From assembly GCF_030013205.1 (NCBI RefSeq), contig NZ_CP122648.1: a stretch of 64,000 nucleotides of DNA; one strand, 5' to 3'. Every line of letters starts with the position of its first letter. The stretch's first letter is position 1. A program made the translations under genes and the position numbers. The stretch comes from Escherichia coli (lineage in GTDB: Bacteria; Pseudomonadota; Gammaproteobacteria; Enterobacterales; Enterobacteriaceae). The notes below the pieces were generated by a model. The model worked only from the letters and a program-made list of their open reading frames with translations, was not told the DNA's origin and ran no database searches. Of this stretch, positions 2,833-15,356 are shown one piece after another.

Positions 2833-2877
2833 GTTGGGACCATTACCAAATAGTTTATATGCTAAAAATTTAGGGAA

Positions 2878-5800
2878 TCATTTTCCTAATTCTCCAGCTA
2901 AAAGTTCAGCCTGCTTCAAAACAGTCTCTGTGGCGAGCAATGACATATCAGGCGGATAACCATATTTTTTGAGCAGACGTTTTACCACCACGCGAATTTT
3001 TGCTCTTGCTGCTTCTTTCACTGTCCAGTCAAGACTGACATTGTTGCGGATAGCCTCCGTAAGTACGACTGCCAGTTCTCGTAGTTTTTCCTTTTCCATT
3101 AACTCGCGAGCACTGTCGTTATCTGCAACAGCAGAATAGAAGGCATATTCATAAGCGCTGAGGTTTAACTGGCTGGCAAGGCTGTCAGATTCCTGGATAG
3201 TCTTGGCAAGCTTGATTAGCTCATCAATTACCTCCGCTGCGGTCAGTACCTTGTTCTGGTAGCCATTGATTGCAGAGGTCAGCATATCAATCAGTTTTTT
3301 GCCTTGGGTGATACTTTGATTCGAGCGAACCTTGATCTCGTCAGAAAGCAGTTTTTTAAGCGTTTCCAAAGCAATATTTCTGTGTTGGTAATCCTTCATT
3401 TCCTGAAGGAATTCTTCAGAAAGAACGGAAATATCAGGTTTTTGTATCCCAGCAGCGTCAAAAATATCAACAACTTTATCGGTAACCAGAGCCTGATCGA
3501 TAGTCTGTTTTACCCGAACTTCGAGACTGTCATTGTGTTCTTCTTCTGATCCGTCTGAGTTTTCAGTAAATTTATTCAGTCTGGCTTTTACTGCCTGGAA
3601 GAATGCTACTTCGGGTGCCGCTTCCATTGCTTTATCGTGCGGTGTCGCCAATGCAAATGCCTGCGATAAGGCTGCAACCGCAGCGAGGAAACGCATTTTA
3701 CCTTTACCGTTATCCAGCCCTAAAATATGGTTTTCTGATTCAAGAATAATTGTCAGGCGTTGTGAGGTAGTTGCGGCAAAGTAAGCTTTGTAATCGTATC
3801 CATGCATCATGCCTTCCAGGATTTCCAGCTTTTCCTGCATGAGCGTTACGGCTTCTTCCTGAACCTCAGCAGGATCTCCACGTCCACCTGCATCAGAGTA
3901 AAAGGAGAGGGCTTCTTTTAAATCAGAGGCAATGCCCAGATAGTCAACAACCAGACCGCCTATCTTATCTTTATACACACGGTTCACACGGGCAATTGCC
4001 TGCATAAGGTTGTGGCCTTTCATTGGTTTGTCGATATACAGCGTATGCATGCTGGGAGCGTCGAAGCCGGTTAACCACATATCACGCACTATCACCAGTT
4101 TCAGCTTGTCGTCGTCATCCTTCATACGGTTAGCCAGAACCTGACGTTCTTTTTTTGTGGTGTGGTGTTTGGCAATTTCTGGCCCGTCAGCAGCAGAAGA
4201 GGTCATGACGACTTTTATTATACCGTCATTTAAATCATCGCTGTGCCATTCAGGTTTTAAGGCTATGATTTCTTTATATAGTTCAGCAGCAATACGGCGG
4301 GACATGGTAACAATCATGCCCTTACCATGATCGGCATTGGATTTTAAGCGCTGCTCAAAGTGCAGAACCATATCCGCCGCAATCGCTTTAATACGTTTTG
4401 AACTGCCAATCAAACCTTCGATTCTGGCCCATTTAGAACGTTCTTTTTGCGTGAGCGTCAGTTCGTCCTCGTTAAACTCATCATCAAAGTCTTCAATAAG
4501 CTGACGACCTTCATCACTGATGGCAATTTTGGCAAGACGGCTTTCATAAAAGATACGAACTGTTGCACCATCTTCAACGGCCTGCGAGATATCGTAGATA
4601 TCAACATAGTTACCAAAAACAGCAGGCGTGTTGACGTCCGTTTTTTCTATGGGGGTTCCGGTAAAGCCGAGATAGGTCGCATTAGGTAAGGCATCACGCA
4701 TATATTTGGCAAAGCCGTAAACGGTGCGTTTACCTGTTACGTTGCCTTCGCTGTCTTTCACGTCAACTTCTTTGGCGCTGAAACCGTACTGGGAACGGTG
4801 TGCTTCATCAGCGATAACGACAATATTGGTTCTGTCTGACAACAACTCATAGATATTGCTGCCATCATCAGGCTGGAATTTTTGAATAGTAGTAAACACC
4901 ACACCGCCAGAGGCGACACGCAAATATTCTTTGAGTTCTTCCCGGTTGTTGGCCTGTTTTGGTGTCTGACGAAGTAGCTGGGTCGCGGAAGAGAACGTAC
5001 CGAATAGCTGATCATCTAAGTCGTTACGGTCAGTAATCACAACAACTGTCGGATTATCCAGCGCCAGCACAATTTTCCCGGTATAAAACACCATCGAAAG
5101 CGATTTACCGGAACCCTGAGTATGCCAGACTACGCCCGCTTTGCGATCTCCGGTTTTTTGCGCATTAACAAGATCTTTACTGTTACGTCCCTGCTGGCGC
5201 AGTGCCACTTCGGCAGAGGGGGAGTCCGCATTCACCGCTGAGGCACGAATAGTGGAAAGAACTGCTGCATTGACCGCGTAGTACTGGTGATAAGCCGCCA
5301 TTTTTTAACAGTACGGATACTGATAATCCCTTTGCTGTCTTCATGTTTGCTGGCCTCAAACACGATAAAGTGGCGGATTATATCCAGCAGCGTTACAGGA
5401 TTAAGCAACCCCTGTAATAAAACTTCAAGCTGTGGTTGGGTACTGGTGGCTTGCGTTTTACCGTTAGCAGTTTTCCACGTCATATAACGACTGAAATCGG
5501 CAGAAACCGTCCCCGCTTTGGCTTCCAGCCCGTCAGATATCACATTAAAAGCATTGTAGTTAAACAGACCGGGGATTTGGTTCTGATAGGTTTTAATCTG
5601 ATTATAGGCACCTGTTACCGTTGCATTTTCGTCAGCGGCATTTTTAAGTTCGATAACGACTAATGGCAGGCCATTGATGAATAAAATAAGATCAGGTCGG
5701 CGGGTATGGTTGCCTTCTTTGATGGTGAGCTGATTAATGACCAGAAATGCATTATTAGTGGGATCGTTAAAGTCGATCAGGCTGGCCAGTTCTCCTTGTG

Positions 5801-6116
5801 TATTACCATCCTTGCTGACTTCGATATTGATTCCTTCGGTCAAAAGGCGATGAAAGGTTAGATTGTTTGCCATTAGGTCAGGTGAGCTGATCTGCATCAC
5901 CTGTTTTAGAGCTTCTTCACACTTCTGCTCACTAAGGTGCGGGTTAATTCGTTGCAATGCTGTACGCACTTTATCTTCAAGGATAACCTGCTGATAGCTA
6001 CGTAACGGATTGATTCCACTGGGTTCAATGTCCGGGCCGTAAACATACTCATAGCCCAGCCCTTGCAGGTGCTCAATTGCCATTACTTCAATATCGGATT
6101 CGGTCATCTTTGCCAT
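2878..6116 (-). pseudogene. hsdR: Type I restriction enzyme R subunit (HsdR), split by a -1 frameshift in a homopolymer tract
   Basis: Two overlapping ORFs: 5232-6116 (N-terminal 294 aa) and 2878-5301 (807 aa with Walker A TQGSGKS and DEAD-like VIADEAHR). The junction is a 6-nt T run at 5301-5306 (A6 on the coding strand); adding one A would join the frames as ...[15 protein letters not shown]... Confidence 0.85.
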
Positions 6117-6174: not shown

Positions 6175-7368
6175 TTATGCTACTGATGCGATTGCTTCTT
6201 CCGCATACTGAACCCGTACTTCGCCGCTCATCAGTTTGGGAAGGAGAGTGTCGCGCAGAGATTCTATGTTTTTAATTTGTGAGTTGTTAATACTTATTTT
6301 TTTCCAGAAGAAATCAATCTGTGTAGTGAATTCTTTCACCATACACTCCGGGGGGAGTTTGAATTCTGGGCGTTGTAATCCGTCAGCCGACAGCTGATTT
6401 ACAGTTGAACCGTTAGTTGCAGCAACAACTTGCTCATGCATATCTTTGGAGCAAAGTAAATAGTACAGAAAAGCATTGGTTAAGTAACTATCGTCATTGA
6501 TGCTGATTTTAAATAAATGATGCGTATATATGGATAATTCGCTTTCTGTTTTTGGAATTATAGCAGGATACCCTATGAGTCGATATTCATGGCCCTGTTC
6601 TGTATTGGCTACAATGATATCCCCAGGCTTTATAATATGCCTTTCTTTAAAATCACCATTGTAGTATTTTATACCTGCACTCTTATAACCACCGCCCTCA
6701 AGTACTGAGTTCAAACTAAAAAGTGGAATGCCGTTATCTGACGTGGTAAGGCCGGCTCCCTTGTAGCTTAATCCCTTAGCTACTGTAATATGACAATCAA
6801 GAGTCGTTATTTCCCAATCCGCATGCGTCTCTTCAATAAACCACTGTCTAAATAGGGTTTCTGCCATGGATTCCAGAGTTTTATTCTGGCGATGAAGCAG
6901 GTCTATTTTGTCTTTAAGAGAGGACAAAATAGAGGCGATGGCTTTTTGTTCAGATTCATCAATTGGTAAGTAAAGAGGAATCAAATTTAGCGATGCTTTA
7001 TTTAATTTTGGTTGAGCAGCACCTGTTAAATAAGGAGATAGATCAAGTTGTGAAAAATATTGGATTATCAATGCCGTTAAATGGGGCTTTTTAGCTTTAA
7101 GGACATGAGCGTGATTATTAACCCAAAATTTTCCAGTAGCTTCAAATGCTATAGGTGTTTTTCTGGACTTTAAGTTTTCTCCATCTTCAGAAATAAGGAT
7201 GTAGCTGCCATCAAAAATATAATTGTCGATATAATCGACAATTCCTGACGCTCCATAATATGGAAAATTTCCTTTCTTATGGGCTCGTTCCATAGCACTC
7301 AAAGGAATTCTTTGTGCGTTGCAAAAATCTGCTAATTCAGTTATACAAAAATTTCTCCACCTACTCAT
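6175..7368 (-). CDS. hsdS: Type I R-M specificity subunit (HsdS)
   Basis: 397-aa ORF between hsdM and hsdR; its start overlaps the hsdM stop (ATGA); two-target-recognition-domain architecture inferred from length and position. Confidence 0.8.
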
Positions 7369-8912
7369 AAAACCACCTTCGCCAGATTATCAACGATGGC
7401 TCTGTTCAGACGCGCCTCTTCTTCCAGTTGCGCTTCAAACTCAGCTTTAAGAGCCGTAAAGCGTTCTTTAAAGTCGAAATCGTCTTCTTCATCAGCAAGA
7501 CCAACATAACGGCCAGGTGTCAGCACATAATCGAGTTTAGCAACTTCAGCAATGTCTACTGACGCACAGAAACCAGCGACGTCTTCGTAGTCGCCACCTT
7601 TGTTACGCCAGTTATGATAGGTATCAGCGATGGTTTTTATATCGTCGTCAGAAAGTACTTTGGTACGACGATTAATTAAATGACCGAGATTACGGGCATC
7701 AATAAACAGAATTTCTTTACTACGATCACGATACTGGTTGCTGTTATGACGGTCACGGCGCATAAACCATAATGCAGCAGGGATCTGAGTATTCAGGAAC
7801 AGCTTTGCCGGTAAGTTGACGATACAGTCAATCACATTGGCATCTTTTACCAGTGCAGCACGAATATCACCTTCACCAGAGCTTTTAGAAGTTAATGCCC
7901 CTTTTGCCAGAACAACACCCGCTTGCCCTTTAGGAGACAAGTGATACAAAAAATGTTGCATCCATGCAAAGTTAGCGTTGCCAGCAGGTGGAATGCCATA
8001 TTGCCAGCGGGCATCACCACGAAGCTGCTCACCAGACCAGTCGGAAACGTTAAACGGTGGGTTAGCTATGATAAAATCAGATTTCAAATCTTTGTGAGCA
8101 TCGTTAAGAAATGAACCTTCATTATTCCAGCGAACGTGTTCAGAATTAATCCCACGAATTGCCAGGTTCATTTTTGCCAGACGCCAAGTGGTCTGGTTGG
8201 ACTCCTGCCCATAGATCGAAATATCGTCAATATTTCCCTGATGTGCTTCTACAAATTTTTCTGACTGAACGAACATACCACCAGAACCACAGCAGGGATC
8301 AAAGACACGGCCTTTATAGGGTTCCAGCATGTTAACCAGCAGGCTTACAATAGATTTTGGCGTATAGAACTGGCCGCCTTGTTTGCCTTCTGCCAGTGCA
8401 AATTCACCTAGGAAGTATTCGAATACGTGACCTAAAACGTCAGCAGAGCGTGCTTTGGCATCTCCTAGTGCAATGTTGCCAATCAGATCTATCAGCTCAC
8501 CCAGAACAGTGGCGTCGAGGTTTTGTCGGGCATAGACTTTCGGCAACACACCTTTTAACTGTGGATTGCCCGCTTCGATAAGCTCCATCGCATCATCAAC
8601 CATCTTACCGATTTCAGGAAGCTTGGCCTTAGAAATCAGATAGTTCCAACGTGCAAGCTCAGGGACAAAGAAAACGTTGTAAGCGGTGTACTCGTCTTTG
8701 TCTTCCGGATCAGCACCTGCGAACTCGCCTTTACCGGCTTTCAGCAACTCATAATGAGATTCAAAAGAATCAGAAATGTACTTAAGGAAAATGAGGCCTA
8801 GTACGACGTGCTTGTACTCGGCTGCATCAATGTTTTTACGCAGTTTGTCTGCCGCTTTCCACAGGATGACCTCTAACGGGTCTGTTTTGATTTCTTTAGG
8901 TTTTCTGGCCAT
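7365..8912 (-). CDS. hsdM: Type I R-M N6-adenine DNA methyltransferase subunit (HsdM)
   Basis: 515-aa ORF with SAM-binding [11 protein letters not shown] and catalytic NPPF motifs. Confidence 0.9.
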
Positions 8913-9075
8913 TAGCGTAACCTTATGAAGGGGGAAGATGGCCCTATTTTGCCTTAAAGTTCCGCTTGTTACGAGCTTATACAGCGATTAATTATTATCT
9001 GGTTTTAGTGTGTTCGTGTAGCTCAGCAAGTGCAATGACTCATGGAGTAAATGCTTTGTAGCGGGATTGTAGATG

Positions 9076-9393
9076 TCAGGTCATTGCCGTCAATGGAGCC
9101 AGTGTCATTGGCATAATTGCTGCACAGCCGATGCCACGCGCACATTCGCTAGTTCACTGTGGTTCATCGTGTGTACTACACCAGTACGCAGTCCGGGAAG
9201 TAACGGCATGGCAGAATCGTTTGTAAAGACGTTCAAGCGGGATTATGTGTACGTAGATGATCTGCTGGATGCAGTCTAAATGATGGAAACAATGGCAGAA
9301 TAGATAGAGGATTATAATAATCTGCATCCACACAAGGGGTTGAACATGAAATCGCCACGCGAATATCGTGATGCCATATTAGCAGTTAATTAG
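9076..9393 (+). pseudogene. IS2-like (IS3 family) transposase 3' remnant, truncated and interrupted by stop codons
   Basis: Translation ...VRSPGSNGMAESFVKTFKRDYV... then, after stops, ...IEDYNNLHPHKGLNMKSPREYRD... matches the C-terminus of IS2 InsD as I recall it ([20 protein letters not shown]...YNEWHPHSALGYRSPREY). Confidence 0.55.
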
Positions 9394-10508
9394 CCGTGTC
9401 CGTTTTAGCAGGGACAACTCCAGTATTCAAAAAAGCTTTCTTAGTGCATATGCATGAGGTGAATAGATGTACAGGCTATGACAAACCATAGTTGTAATTT
9501 TTAATGTTTAAAATTCTCCGTTACAGTAGGACATTCCTTGTACATTAAATTCCATCTAAGGTTGAATTTTTAATTTAATAAGGTCGCAATCTAAAATGAT
9601 GTGTATGGGGTTATTTGTAAGATGATTTTTTATTTTTGATAGTGGTGATTAAGGGAGCGGGTAATGTTTGTCTATTCAAAAATATAGAGATTCAAGGTTG
9701 GTAGCAGTTTGGCTTCTTTTATAACCGAAGGGCAGAAAAGCAAGGGGAACTCGAAGAAGCAAGCGCAGCGGCTTCGCAGAGTTAGCCCTTGCTTCTCTTA
9801 TAATTGGCATTATTCATTCAAGAACAATAGGATCTTCGCTTGTACAAGCGAAGCTATAATAAAAACAATCAATTAATAATTTTAAAAGTATTAAACAAGA
9901 ACCTATTGACATTCATAAAATACAAGTTATTTATAATGTATGCCATAAATAAAAAGTTTTATGTCATATGTATCCTGCACTATGTGCAGTTAATGTACCA
10001 CTTGTCCCATAGATGGGAATATTGGAAAGGTTACTTTGTTTTGAAGTAGCCTTTCGTCCTTCAATATTAACGATTACTTATTGCTATTACCAAGTCCAGT
10101 CGAATCGAAGAACATCTTTTATCTGAAACGACTCCTAATACCCGGTTAAAGCCACAATATCTCTCGCATACGTAGACCAAAGAAAAATTATGATATTAAC
10201 TATGTGATTTTTTTTAGTGTTAAGTTGAATAATTAAATACTGGAGAGTTTTCTGTGCACTACCAATTGCTGGTTCATCTGTTCTGCCGCTGATGTTTCTG
10301 ACGAATCTCCCGGTGACACAGAACTGTCCCTCTCTACCAGCCTTTATTCGACTCAATGTCCGGCTGCTGATACGCAGTTATCCCTTCGTATCAATGACTG
10401 ACACTTAAACGTAATGCTTTGGTTGCTGGCGTATCTGACAGCTTCTTCGGCGTGAAGGTCGTTGTGTAAGTATACTTCTTGGTTTATTTAGGCTATATAA
10501 AACCATGA

Positions 10509-11405
10509 CTATGACTTGCTGTTTTCAGTAAGAGTCTTATCATCCAAAGAATTTATTCTAGAAATTCTTTTTAACTCATTAAGATAATCAACCTCGTTTT
10601 CTAAGAACCAATGAAGAACTTTAGAATTGCCAAGTAATTTATTAATATATGACTGGATTATAACGAATTTCAACATATCTGAACCATACTCGGTTTGAAG
10701 CTTTTTCGTTTCTTCCGAAGTTGTTGCCATTTCTTGTTCCAGACGAAGTATGGTTTTTTTTATGTCCTTTTTATAGGGAGTGTTTTTCCCTTTATTTACT
10801 ATCATCGATGCCGGTGTTGCATCCAAGATGCTCATTGCAAATTTTTTACTATAATTATCAAAATTAATCATTGTACCGACTGCTTCAATTTGGCGAATTG
10901 GCTTCATTTTCCTCAAAACGTCAAATGTAGCCTTAGGTATAGGTTTATCAGAAAGTTTCGCAATTACACTTGGATCTATGCCGTTCATCACATTCGCTTT
11001 ATCTTTTATGGCATCAACAGATATGCCCAAAGCAGCACTAAGTTTTTCAATTGATACTTTTGCCAGAGACTTAATTATCATTCTATGTTCTTCAACTACA
11101 TTTATATGATTCACTTGTTTGTTAGGAGTGAAAGCATCATCTATGCTCGAAAGTATACATGGAGCTTTTTCTATACCTAAGTCTTTTAAAGCCTCAACCC
11201 TTAAATGGCCATCAAGTATCTTAGTGACATCTTTATCTTTGTCATAGAATACTATTATTGGTTCAATAATACCTAAGCTTTCGATAGAGGTAACTATTTG
11301 ATGATATTTATGGCTTCGCTTTACGTTTTCTAATAATTCCTTAGATGGAATTAACTTATTAGTTTCCAGGTAAATAAAATTATCGCCAAAACGTATCTGA
11401 ATCAT
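10509..11405 (-). CDS. ParB/Srx-family protein (second of two tandem paralogues)
   Basis: 298-aa ORF; N-terminal ParB-like motif ...KILDGHLRVEALKDLGIEKAPCIL...; K/N/I-rich; start overlaps the upstream gene stop. Confidence 0.6.
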   Translation of the reverse strand: MIQIRFGDNFIYLETNKLIPSKELLENVKRSHKYHQIVTSIESLGIIEPIIVFYDKDKDVTKILDGHLRVEALKDLGIEKAPCILSSIDDAFTPNKQVNHINVVEEHRMIIKSLAKVSIEKLSAALGISVDAIKDKANVMNGIDPSVIAKLSDKPIPKATFDVLRKMKPIRQIEAVGTMINFDNYSKKFAMSILDATPASMIVNKGKNTPYKKDIKKTILRLEQEMATTSEETKKLQTEYGSDMLKFVIIQSYINKLLGNSKVLHWFLENEVDYLNELKRISRINSLDDKTLTENSKS

Positions 11406-12298
11406 TTTAATACCTCTTTGTTTACTGGGGTTAATATCTGAGATGGTAGTTCTGAAAGATTCTCTTGTTCAAGTATATGTTGAAAGCTTTTATTTATCAT
11501 TATGATGTTAAAAATCTCATTTACTATTAGTAGGTTGGTTTTTATGAATTTTGAGTTGTTATAAACAGATTTATGTTCAGCGATACTATTTTCATAAAGC
11601 TCAATCAACTCCTCTGCAGTCATCCTTTTTGATGGTTTGTGATAATAAAATCCGGCTGCTTTTGCACCTTTATTCCCAACTGTTCTTTGATTTAGAATGT
11701 GTTTTATCTTTATAATGTCCCGACTTTTTATTAATTTTTTATCATATGCTTCGGTAAGAATATCTTGTGCTTCCTCAGTTTCACATCTTGCAAATTGCAC
11801 TGCGAGATACAGAGGCAAATTACCCCGTTCGACTGCTGAGAGAAGTTTATGCTCTCCCTTATCAAGTAGCATATTAATACTGCTCACCCAGTTCGATGAA
11901 TATCCAGTAATCTCACTTATTTCGGAGTCTGAAAGTCCTCTGATTTTCATGTCTTTAATCACCTGTAATAACTCATTAGAACGTGGTCTTCTCCTTGCAA
12001 TGTTTTCAACTAAACTCATAACGTAAGCATCTTCTTCTGATACATCTCTTATAATTGCTGGAATAATAGTTTCACCTAATGCAACGAGAGCCTCTATTCT
12101 CCCTTGACCACAAATTAAAGCATATTTGAAATCGCCTTCATCAATAGCTCTTACGCTTATTGGCTTGCTTAATCCTCTTTTTTTTATGCTTTCCTTTATT
12201 TCTTCATGCACTACCTTATTTCTTGTTCGTGGGTTAAGAAATTTTATTTTTGCAATCTCAATTTGAATTATTGGGAATTCATTTTTTTCAGGCAGCAT
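11402..12298 (-). CDS. ParB/Srx-family protein (first of two tandem paralogues)
   Basis: 298-aa ORF; ...KPISVRAIDEGDFKYALICGQGRIEALVALGETIIPAIIRDV...LVENIARR... resembles ParB box regions followed by an HTH-like segment; no ParA partner adjacent. Confidence 0.6.
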   Translation of the reverse strand: MLPEKNEFPIIQIEIAKIKFLNPRTRNKVVHEEIKESIKKRGLSKPISVRAIDEGDFKYALICGQGRIEALVALGETIIPAIIRDVSEEDAYVMSLVENIARRRPRSNELLQVIKDMKIRGLSDSEISEITGYSSNWVSSINMLLDKGEHKLLSAVERGNLPLYLAVQFARCETEEAQDILTEAYDKKLIKSRDIIKIKHILNQRTVGNKGAKAAGFYYHKPSKRMTAEELIELYENSIAEHKSVYNNSKFIKTNLLIVNEIFNIIMINKSFQHILEQENLSELPSQILTPVNKEVLK

Positions 12299-13844
12299 AT
12301 AGTTCCCTCACTTTCATGCGAGTAATAATTTGTAGAAGTTTATCAAGATTATCAAATCTATAGAGATCTAATCGAATGTTGTTTGTTTCCGTCATGCACA
12401 TTTTATTATATTCGTTTTCAATCTTTGGTATGATATAAAAATCAAGAGGTGAAATATTTTGTGAATTCATTCGTATAACAATTGTTATGTCTGCTTTCTG
12501 TGAGTTATCAAACCGGACTTTCCATCTAAGTTTACCTGATTTCATATGTATGCATTTAGTAACAAGGACGGAAATTAAAAACTCATCATTGATGTAAAGC
12601 ATTGGGGCATATTTATACTCGTCTATATGACAGTTACTTTTTAAAATTTCACCCTTAAAATCCTCAATTATCTCTGAGTAAAATGATCTTAGTGCTTCAT
12701 TTATTTTGAGATAGCTGTAATCATGTTCTGGCTTATAACCAATCAAAGTATATGCTCTTAAAAGACCACCAAATCGGGTTCTATAAACAGAAGATGAAGG
12801 GCCTGTATCATCTTCATCAATGATAAAGCCTGATAGTTTTCCATTAGATTCTAATTTTTGTTTTAGTTTTTCTAATAGATCTTCATTAGTCAAATGAATG
12901 GATCGGAGCTGAATTATTTCTTGAGCTTTATTGTATTTTTTCTTTGAAATAATAGGTTTATATGCCTTGTCACATCTAACCCATTCATGTTTGGGGTTTT
13001 TTACAAGCCTACTTTTTAATTTAGATGAGGTTTTGTTATATATGTTGTTTCCAATATATTTTTCATTTGTCAAAATTTGATGTATTTTTGCACGAGTCCA
13101 TAATGTTCCATTTTCTGCAGGTATGTTCTGTTCATTTAATCTCTCAGCAATAATGAATTCTGGGACGTTATTATCTATAAAGAGATCATATATTCTATTT
13201 ACAATTTTTATTTCATTTTTTGGTCCCGGAATTAATATTACCCTATCTGTTTGAATACTCTTTCTTTTGCGGAAACTCAATATTTCTTTAGCTATGCCAT
13301 TTTCGTCTACTAAAAGACGTCTCAGCCCATAACCAGCCATACCGCCTTGATGATAACCAAGCTTTATTAAATTTACTTGCCCTATAAATACCTTTTCAGA
13401 TAGATTCCTGCTGTGATATGCAGCACTAGATCTTTTTATATTCAGTATAACAGAGGACTCTAAAGGGAAATCTTTAGTGGGTATAGGTTCGGAACAATAT
13501 ATAAGATCTACACCATTTCTCTCAAATAGAAAGGAATAATATGCCGCTTCATCACTATTTTGAAAACGACCAAAACGGCTCACATCATAAAATAATACAG
13601 CCTGTATATCTATTTTCTTTTGTTCTACATCGCTAAGTAACTGCTGCAAAGAATGCCTGCCTACGATACTGACTCCGCTCTTACCTGCATCATCGTAGGT
13701 ATAAGCGATTTCCATATTGTTCTTTTCAGCATAATCTTTGATATATTCGGACTGATTATGTAAAGAATATTGCTGATGGTCGGTAGACATCCTCAAGTAC
13801 TGCGCGACCCTAACTCTATGATTTTTGTCATTTTCGCTAGCCAT
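12288..13844 (-). CDS. Large serine recombinase (resolvase/invertase catalytic domain plus C-terminal recombinase domain)
   Basis: 518-aa ORF; N-terminus VAQYLRMSTDHQQYSLHNQ... carries the catalytic-serine motif typical of serine recombinases; overlaps the downstream ParB-like gene by 11 nt. Confidence 0.7.
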   Translation of the reverse strand: MASENDKNHRVRVAQYLRMSTDHQQYSLHNQSEYIKDYAEKNNMEIAYTYDDAGKSGVSIVGRHSLQQLLSDVEQKKIDIQAVLFYDVSRFGRFQNSDEAAYYSFLFERNGVDLIYCSEPIPTKDFPLESSVILNIKRSSAAYHSRNLSEKVFIGQVNLIKLGYHQGGMAGYGLRRLLVDENGIAKEILSFRKRKSIQTDRVILIPGPKNEIKIVNRIYDLFIDNNVPEFIIAERLNEQNIPAENGTLWTRAKIHQILTNEKYIGNNIYNKTSSKLKSRLVKNPKHEWVRCDKAYKPIISKKKYNKAQEIIQLRSIHLTNEDLLEKLKQKLESNGKLSGFIIDEDDTGPSSSVYRTRFGGLLRAYTLIGYKPEHDYSYLKINEALRSFYSEIIEDFKGEILKSNCHIDEYKYAPMLYINDEFLISVLVTKCIHMKSGKLRWKVRFDNSQKADITIVIRMNSQNISPLDFYIIPKIENEYNKMCMTETNNIRLDLYRFDNLDKLLQIITRMKVRELYAA

Positions 13845-14014
13845 GCACGAAACCTCATGGATGATTCAATACAATGTAGTGGATAAAATTGATCAAATTT
13901 CAACCGAATTCAACTGTTTTATCATTGATTAGAGCGAATTTGGTAGATCTTCGAGGTGTATGATAATCGAGAAGAGATGTGAATTATTTAGCTGATATGA
14001 CCGACAGCTTTCGT

Positions 14015-14064
14015 TATGTGGACTCAATGTCCCCATTTGTAAATGGCTATGCTTAGTCCACATA
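14015..14064. repeat. Inverted repeat TATGTGGACT ... AGTCCACATA (10-bp arms, about 30-bp spacer) upstream of the serine recombinase gene
   Basis: Seen directly in the sequence (approximate coordinates); lies in the 282-bp gap between the serine recombinase and the integrase. Confidence 0.5.
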
Positions 14065-14126
14065 GGTTAATGGTGTGATTATTAATTCTTTAACTAAATC
14101 AAGATAGTTAATCCATCATGGGAGAG

Positions 14127-15356
14127 TTATGCGGCCATAACTTTGCATTTTTGAGACGAAACATAGTCACTCCACCATTGCATGAGAACCACCCGTTCAG
14201 TGAGATACTCTGCACGATTGTAGGCTGCAATTATTTCATCTTTCTTCGAGTGGGCAAGGGCGGCTTCTAAGACATCAGTCCTAAACTTGCCAGACTCCTC
14301 AGCAGCCGTTCTAGCAATGGATCGCATACCGTGAGCTACAAGCTCACCTCCGAAACCCATACGGATTATGGCCGCATTAGCTGTTTGTTCATGCATGTGA
14401 TTGAGTGGAGCTTTGATACTGGGGAACACCCACTCTCTATGCCCGCTGATGACTTTCATTAAATCCAAAACTCGCAAAGCTTCTTTGCTCAGTGGAACTT
14501 TGTGAGGCTTCTTCATTTTCATAAACTCCGCCGGGATGTTCCACATGCCAGTTTCAATATCAATATCTGACCATCTTGTGCGAACAGCTTCACCTGGGCG
14601 AACCCATGTGAGAAGTTGCCACTCAATCAGTAGCCTTGTTTCCAAACGGATAGAAGCATTGTTTAGAGCAACCAAGAAGCGAGGGAGTTCGGAAGGGGGT
14701 AATGCTGGCATATTCTGTTTTTTTGGCTTGCTGAACCGTTGCCCCAGGTTGTCTGCCGGGTTGAATTCTATGAGTTCTTCTGTTGCTGCATAGCGGAAAA
14801 TTTCATTCAGGCGGGATATGATGCGGCGAAGTGTTTCAAGGACACCTCGTTTTTCTATGGGTTCTAAATGCTGTTTAAGCATTTTAGGGCGAATCTCCTT
14901 AATTGGGGTATCACCCAATGTGGAAAAGATATTTCTCTCTAGGCTTCGCCAGATGTCGTTAGCATGATCTTGGGAGATGCCTGACGTTTTGACTTTCTCA
15001 TCAAGCCACTTCTTGGCTACTGCTTGAAATGTATGTTCCGTGGCATCTTTCAGTGCATTGGCTTTTTGGTTGTTATGAACTTGGGGGTCTATACCATTTG
15101 TAAGCAACGACAAGTATTCATCACGTAAAGCTCGTGCCTTCGCAAGTGTAAGGTGAGGATAGGTTCCTAAGCTCACCTTAGTTCGCTTTTTGGTCACAGG
15201 CACTGCATATCTGAAATACCAATTTTTCTTCCCTCCCTTCGCCAGGGGAGCGATTCGCAACAGCAAACCATCGCCGTCAAAAAGGTTAACCTCTTTTTCG
15301 GCAGGTTTGGTGCTTTTGATTTCAGTGTCAGTGAGCTTCTTAGCGATTTTGGCCAT
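14127..15356 (-). CDS. intA: P4-type tyrosine integrase (IntA-like) at the 3' end of ssrA
   Basis: ORF 14127-15437 (GTG start in the track); probable start at 15356 (MAKIAKKLTDTEIK...), matching the N-terminus of CP4-57 IntA as recalled; conserved ...HGMRSIARTAA... region. Confidence 0.85.
   Translation of the reverse strand: MAKIAKKLTDTEIKSTKPAEKEVNLFDGDGLLLRIAPLAKGGKKNWYFRYAVPVTKKRTKVSLGTYPHLTLAKARALRDEYLSLLTNGIDPQVHNNQKANALKDATEHTFQAVAKKWLDEKVKTSGISQDHANDIWRSLERNIFSTLGDTPIKEIRPKMLKQHLEPIEKRGVLETLRRIISRLNEIFRYAATEELIEFNPADNLGQRFSKPKKQNMPALPPSELPRFLVALNNASIRLETRLLIEWQLLTWVRPGEAVRTRWSDIDIETGMWNIPAEFMKMKKPHKVPLSKEALRVLDLMKVISGHREWVFPSIKAPLNHMHEQTANAAIIRMGFGGELVAHGMRSIARTAAEESGKFRTDVLEAALAHSKKDEIIAAYNRAEYLTERVVLMQWWSDYVSSQKCKVMAA

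Follow-up and report, generated by a model that had tools for sequence, protein, structure and literature searches.

A truncated IS2-group transposase gene upstream of hsdM, carried with the hsd block of an Escherichia coli island

The stretch of Escherichia coli DNA analysed here (the window, 64 kb in length) carries a chromosomal island at the tmRNA gene ssrA, as placed by alignment to the annotated genome of strain APEC O78, and its positions 8800-9700 are 100% identical to many complete E. coli genomes. Read from right to left, the island contains a P4-type tyrosine integrase (14127-15356, minus strand), a large serine recombinase (LSR; 12288-13844, minus strand), two ParB/RepB-like genes (10509-12298, minus strand), about 1.1 kb of AT-rich non-coding DNA, a transposase stump, the genes hsdM (7365-8912), hsdS (6175-7368) and hsdR (2877-6116), all three on the minus strand, and IS1 copies together with an ankyrin-repeat gene. 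In the window, hsdR is frameshifted: a run of six T residues at 5301-5306 stands in place of seven in APEC O78, and the gene for 1079 amino acids is split into ORFs of 301 and 808 amino acids. The lost T is either a genuine slip in the homopolymer, with loss of restriction, or an error of sequencing. The two IS1 copies (273-1045 and 2112-2880), 90-96% identical to each other, flank the ankyrin-repeat gene, and the second of them sits where the majority of other block copies have the Kiwa genes kwaA and kwaB, next after hsdR. At the other end of the island, the LSR and the two ParB_N/RepB genes (10509-13844) have overlapping stop and start codons, adjoin the ssrA integrase and occur also in an E. 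coli B derivative; their proteins matched no defence system model in PADLOC.

The stump lies 200 bp to the right of the hsdM start, with the AT-rich non-coding stretch on its own right. An earlier note on this DNA had placed it in that way, and had described positions 9076-9393 as the last ~100 codons of an IS2-like transposase interrupted by internal stops. The transposase origin is borne out: window 9115-9393 (plus strand) holds the 92 terminal orfB codons of an IS2-group transposase of the IS3 family, followed by the stop codon TAG at 9391-9393. The Pfam domain rve_3 was matched with an E value of 4.8e-11 and 42.7 bits (curated cutoff 26.5 bits), the domain in the stump consisting of its C-terminal third alone. 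The closest intact relative found is an unnamed IS3-family element of 1311 bp on plasmid pkle02 of Klebsiella pasteurii Sb-24 (NZ_CP073237.1, 46149-47459; transposase WP_228299445.1). Amino acids 177-268 of its OrfB align to window 9115-9390 with 82.6% identity (tblastn, E 2e-46), and positions 1006-1311 of the element align to window 9117-9422 with 86.3% nucleotide identity (blastn, E 3e-102). The surviving share is 306 of 1311 bp (23%), made up of the 92 codons and the right terminal inverted repeat (IRR).

The edges of the stump differ from those first proposed. Homology to the IS sets in at 9115-9117 and not at 9076, and the DNA from 9073 or 9076 to 9114 (MSGHCRQWSQCHWH), which supplies the opening 13-14 codons of the apparent ORF, has no detectable IS origin and is in frame by coincidence. 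From 9073, frame 1 translates as MSGHCRQWSQCHWHNCCTADATRTFASSLWFIVCTTPVRSPGSNGMAESFVKTFKRDYVYVDDLLDAV, a stop, MMETMAE, a second stop, and IEDYNNLHPHKGLNMKSPREYRDAILAVN up to the terminal stop. Internal stops are present as reported, a TAA at 9277-9279 and a TAG at 9301-9303; they are in frame and arose by point mutation of sense codons (TCA and TGG, respectively, in relatives), and the window allele contains no frameshift. The right end of the element is at 9422, 29 bp beyond the terminal TAG. The IRR (9382-9422, plus strand) overlaps the last orfB codons and ends ...GGGACAACTCCA-3'; it is intact and reads GTGTCCGTTTTAGCAGGGACAACTCCA, with the terminal AACTCCA closing on the CA at 9422. It is identical to the IRR of the K. 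pasteurii element at 39 of 41 positions, and to the published 41-bp IRR of IS2 at 21 of 41, including 11 of the last 13.

The left truncation junction (9110-9117), where non-IS DNA meets IS position ~1004-1006 of 1311, is the same in all alleles examined. The DNA immediately to its left (9088-9114) bears a weak gapped likeness to the IS (~55% by eye; CAATGG versus GAATGG), so that the true junction could be about 25 bp more to the left, the DNA between being locally scrambled. A continuation of IS homology leftward of 9115 in another frame was considered and rejected, the match being weak, gapped and not significant in blastn (word size 7) or tblastn. Other pieces of the element, that is, its missing left part, are absent from the 64-kb window by blastn and tblastn.

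To which group did the element belong? Similarity to IS2/IS3-family transposases is clear, the stump being 49% identical to IS2 InsD at the amino acid level across 84 aa (E 3e-25). For the OrfB of the intact K. pasteurii element, identity to InsD is 52% over 246 aa (E 6e-82) and identity to IS3 OrfB is 20% (E 0.004), and its next-best plasmid matches are transposases of the IS2, ISEc27 and ISEc36 families, at 49-52%. The stump shares with IS2 an ungapped orfB C-terminus that includes SPxSNG(I/M)AESFVKT(I/F)KRDY, the DDE glutamate motif, and HPHxxLxxxSPREY. The outer ends of the two IRRs are also similar (AGGGACAACTCCA in the stump and AGGGGCAAATCCA in IS2), both terminating in CA-3'. In IS2, the DDE glutamate is at the A341-E342 position, and the terminal imperfect inverted repeats end in CA-3' (PMC3219604). 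By these sequence features, the stump appears to be the remnant of an IS2-group member of the IS3 family. IS2 itself was considered and rejected, with protein identity of only ~50%, the limited IRR match given above and nucleotide similarity to IS2 copies below detection; blastn across 5426 E. coli genomes, run with a sensitivity of ~65-70% identity, matched the stump locus alone and no IS2 copies. Under the usual ISfinder isoform criteria, a same-IS call requires high nucleotide identity to the reference. The label "IS2-like" is thus right for the group and wrong for IS2 proper.

The K. pasteurii element has TG...CA ends (L002 1496-2806), both inverted repeats, and orfA and orfB with an A-rich slippery run between them. 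Unlike the stump, it is full length, plasmid-borne, in another genus and at an unrelated site, and since it is 14% diverged from the stump, it is a sister element rather than the donor. The stump locus has been annotated before. RefSeq/PGAP records a 100% identical pseudogene there, "integrase core domain-containing protein" (e.g. APECO78_RS26295 in E. coli APEC O78), flagged "internal stop; incomplete; missing N-terminus". Its span corresponds to window 9124-9393 and omits the IS group, the IRR and the true left boundary. The stump is an ordinary IS pseudogene that RefSeq had previously annotated.

Of the DDE triad, the stump keeps the glutamate alone (GAA at 9214-9216, in NGMAESF). Both catalytic aspartates are gone, the homology beginning after the TDNGS motif that bears the second. 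No left inverted repeat (IRL) was found anywhere in the 64-kb window by blastn and tblastn, nor was orfA or the slippery site of the -1 frameshift window, all of which the K. pasteurii relative possesses, and the left end of the element is missing from all copies found, which leaves no two flanks between which a target-site duplication could be compared. Because the catalytic triad is incomplete, as expected of a truncated copy, the stump cannot be an active element, and it is predicted to be non-functional and unable to transpose. Lesions differ among alleles. Besides the two nonsense codons of the window allele, there are +4 and +2 insertions in MB06022, two 1-nt deletions and a nonsense codon in 730V1, and a 1-nt deletion in an A-run in loci L007, L008 and L012, with an additional 2-nt deletion in L007 and L008; the alleles of L013 and L014 (proteins P0001 and P0002) carry no lesion and have an open 106-aa frame. 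Across ten alleles, variable sites at codon positions 1/2/3 number 18/13/13 in the stump versus 12/3/79 in the adjacent hsdM. The stump has no codon-position bias, which is the pattern of neutral decay after truncation.

Copies of the stump occur in ~280 E. coli genomes (279 complete genomes, with near-full coverage), in Kluyvera, in Pseudocitrobacter and on 22 metagenome contigs, and every copy found adjoins hsdM, the gene to which the stump is always linked. The truncation point is identical in all of them, with IS positions 1006-1311 only in the window, in loci L005-L014, in Kluyvera cryocrescens, in Pseudocitrobacter vendiensis and on the 22 metagenome contigs. A search with the right-junction pattern (IRR end plus flank) gave two matches in 100,044 species genomes, in K. 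cryocrescens and P. vendiensis, and 23 matches in metagenome contigs. An intact relative exists at the unrelated pkle02 site; at the stump site, no intact element was found in the 100,044 species genomes or the metagenome contigs, where all matches with enough flank are the 306-bp stump. The state of the hsdM upstream region before the IS arrived was sought on plasmids, where the hsdM coding sequence alone is conserved and the upstream DNA is not. Across three genera, the stump holds a constant place inside the hsd block, as an old scar and not a module seam. Its identical truncation point implies that the hsdRSM block of E. coli, Kluyvera and Pseudocitrobacter goes back to a single ancestral arrangement and has travelled between hotspots in one piece. 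The practical worth of the stump is as a marker of this common descent; it is otherwise minor, IS stumps being common.

What lies to the right of the stump shows where the block ends. Homology to the window spans hsdM and the stump and runs on to 9795-9804 in all contexts, of which at least six differ on the right-hand side. In the window, the block is followed by LSR/ParB/ParB and then the integrase. In 730V1 and L009, the integrase follows directly at ssrA, without LSR/ParB. Elsewhere, the block is followed by a JAB/E2/ThiF system, either beside ygbA/fhlA (MB06022, L007 and L010) or beside an integrase (L011), by a Gabija-like OLD-TOPRIM and UvrD pair (L012), or by a 121-aa ORF with P4 cII-like and RES genes (L008, L013 and L014). 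At 9795-9804, the homology of the window to all other hsd-stump loci stops. Since homology persists past the stump to ~9800 in every context, the seam between the hsd block and its right-hand neighbours is at ~9800, some 380 bp right of the IS end.

Very probably, then, an IS2-group element inserted upstream of hsdM, was later truncated, and has since been carried with the hsd block as a neutral relic, the mosaic seam lying at ~9800. An IS3-family element of ~1.3 kb would have inserted upstream of hsdM with its transposase reading away from that gene. A deletion or illegitimate recombination would then have removed the left 77%, taking away IRL, orfA, the frameshift window and, from orfB, the N-terminal two-thirds with both catalytic aspartates. 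This would have joined IS position ~1005 to DNA ~200 bp upstream of the hsdM start codon and left the last 92 orfB codons, a complete IRR and, on the right, the flank of the original target. Thereafter, the stump would have evolved neutrally as a passive passenger of a conserved block, which would comprise the ankyrin gene, Kiwa in some copies and not in others, hsdRSM, the stump and 380 bp of flanking DNA with a hairpin at its end. This block would move between defence-island hotspots (ssrA, ygbA/fhlA and P4-like elements) and between genera, with the LSR-ParB-ParB segment outside it, beyond the right edge at ~9800. The sequence comparisons show the homology and its limits, the junction common to all copies, the neutral decay, the tie to hsdM and the place of the seam. 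From them we infer the order of insertion and truncation, the nature of the truncating event and the state that preceded it, the last because none of the loci found has a complete copy of the element in this position.

The 9423-9800 flank most plausibly represents target DNA that has bordered the IS on its right since insertion. Its first part (9423-9733) is AT-rich, non-coding and conserved, and travels with the hsd block. It is followed by a long conserved hairpin (9734-9798, minus strand), terminator-like and succeeded by UUUUCU, which is the last conserved feature before the seam. The hairpin measures 65 nt and has a folding energy of -33.5 kcal/mol (z = -3.8). Divergence within the block is lowest here, and all right-hand contexts diverge within ~10 bp beyond it. 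It is conceivable, albeit unlikely, that 9423-9800 with its hairpin is a functional cassette boundary, acting as a terminator/insulator or as a preferred recombination site, and that the stump is simply trapped within it. Were this so, the boundary could allow the hsd block to be swapped between defence-island hotspots, with GCTTCGCTTG-type units as possible partner sites; the GCTTCGCTTG motif occurs in the window at a frequency no higher than chance. Rfam returned no credible RNA family over 8850-10600, which includes the hairpin and the palindrome described next, or in the neighbouring context of L006. A perfect palindrome, CTTCGCTTG-TA-CAAGCGAAG, is present at 9836-9855, ~40 bp past the hairpin. 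Palindromic units of 75 nt, of the type GCTTCGCTTGCATTGATTTTAAAGCTTCTCTTGCAGCGCAGGAGAAGC, lie to the right of the hsd block in L005, L006, L007, L008, L012-L014 and L019, with two copies in L006 at 9790-10000, and are not repeated inside the window; they may constitute a repeat family at cassette boundaries of these defence islands.

The earlier note had proposed that the stump itself is the seam, the point at which separate insertions brought the restriction-modification operon and the LSR/ParB module together. As it had supposed, the two modules can be found apart: hsdRSM with the stump stands beside the ssrA integrase without LSR/ParB in 730V1 and L009, and hsd with the stump is also found at ygbA/fhlA beside JAB/E2/ThiF or Gabija-like OLD/UvrD genes, and beside P4 cII-like/RES genes. 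Compared with 730V1 and L009, the window has ~4.1 kb extra (~10060-14160) between the integrase stop and 9906-10059, the latter interval being 74% similar to the integrase-downstream DNA of those two loci; the arrangement is consistent with a separate acquisition of the ~4.1-kb LSR/ParB segment. Other observations also lean towards a seam in the stump. Rearrangements cluster there: strain D2 has an intact IS3 at 9387/9388 with everything leftward lost, and in the ST540-type islands (53 genomes) the stump is reduced to ~14 bp, 9129-9533 being replaced by 218 unrelated bp. Furthermore, the window and ST540 diverge by ~11% towards hsdM and by ~0.6% towards ParB, with the switch across 9128-9680. 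However, homology crosses the stump to ~9800 in loci that lack LSR/ParB, which assigns the stump, together with the next 380 bp on its right, to the hsd side. The same truncation in three genera is older than the LSR/ParB association, and D2, which from 9388 on matches the window at 100% identity, arose recently through IS3 and is not ancestral. A seam at the stump is thus largely refuted by the shared 9423-9800 flank and has become very unlikely. Nor does the stump bear on how the restriction-modification and LSR/ParB modules met. It is the probable trace of an earlier deletion in which DNA upstream of hsdM became fused to the interior of an IS; the comparison shifts the true mosaic seam to ~9800. 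LSR/ParB without hsd is found in D2, B95.deltaA and 2014EL-1346-6; these strains arose by deletions bounded by IS3 or IS1, so they are uninformative on the ancestral state. Further rearrangement is evidently tolerated within the dead IS.

Promoter-like hexamers facing hsdM are present at 9066-9093 (minus strand), with a -35 TTGACG at 9093-9088, a 16-nt spacer and a -10 TACAAT at 9071-9066. They agree with the consensus at 10 of 12 positions, a consensus match only, and are the sole good one in that direction. The site lies in non-IS DNA 20-45 bp left of the junction, partly within the 9076-9393 interval, and is kept in the compared stump alleles, not in ST540. Scanning the region gave 5 sites versus 4.7 expected from shuffled sequence, and a candidate hsdM promoter at 9093-9066 is a lead rather than a result. 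It is highly improbable that the stump is a domesticated piece, serving as a small rve_3-domain protein or as a solo IRR or spacer that regulates or insulates hsdM: the P0001 and P0002 alleles, which taken by themselves would be compatible with an expressed peptide, the retention of 9115-9800 in all contexts and the nearby promoter-like site would fit such a role, but most alleles carry independent frameshifts and nonsense codons, codon-position bias is absent, the catalytic Asp residues, the DNA-binding OrfA part and the IRL are missing, the ST540-type islands have lost nearly all of the stump and yet have hsdMSR annotated as intact genes, and the promoter scan gives no more sites than shuffled sequence.

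Two further features lie in the AT-rich DNA beyond the seam. A second, unrelated IS3-family scrap of ~145 bp (10324-10467) is located 40 bp from the ParB stop codon, nearer the edge of the LSR/ParB module than the stump is. It shares 78% identity with ISKpn34-family elements and 72% with ISSen4; ST540 has a PGAP annotation for it and APEC O78 has none. Finally, part of the spacer (9800-10242) is 82% identical to the ygbA-side island end of strain K56-43-un, which has no ParB genes; because it is shared with this ParB-less strain, the stretch recurs at different island ends.
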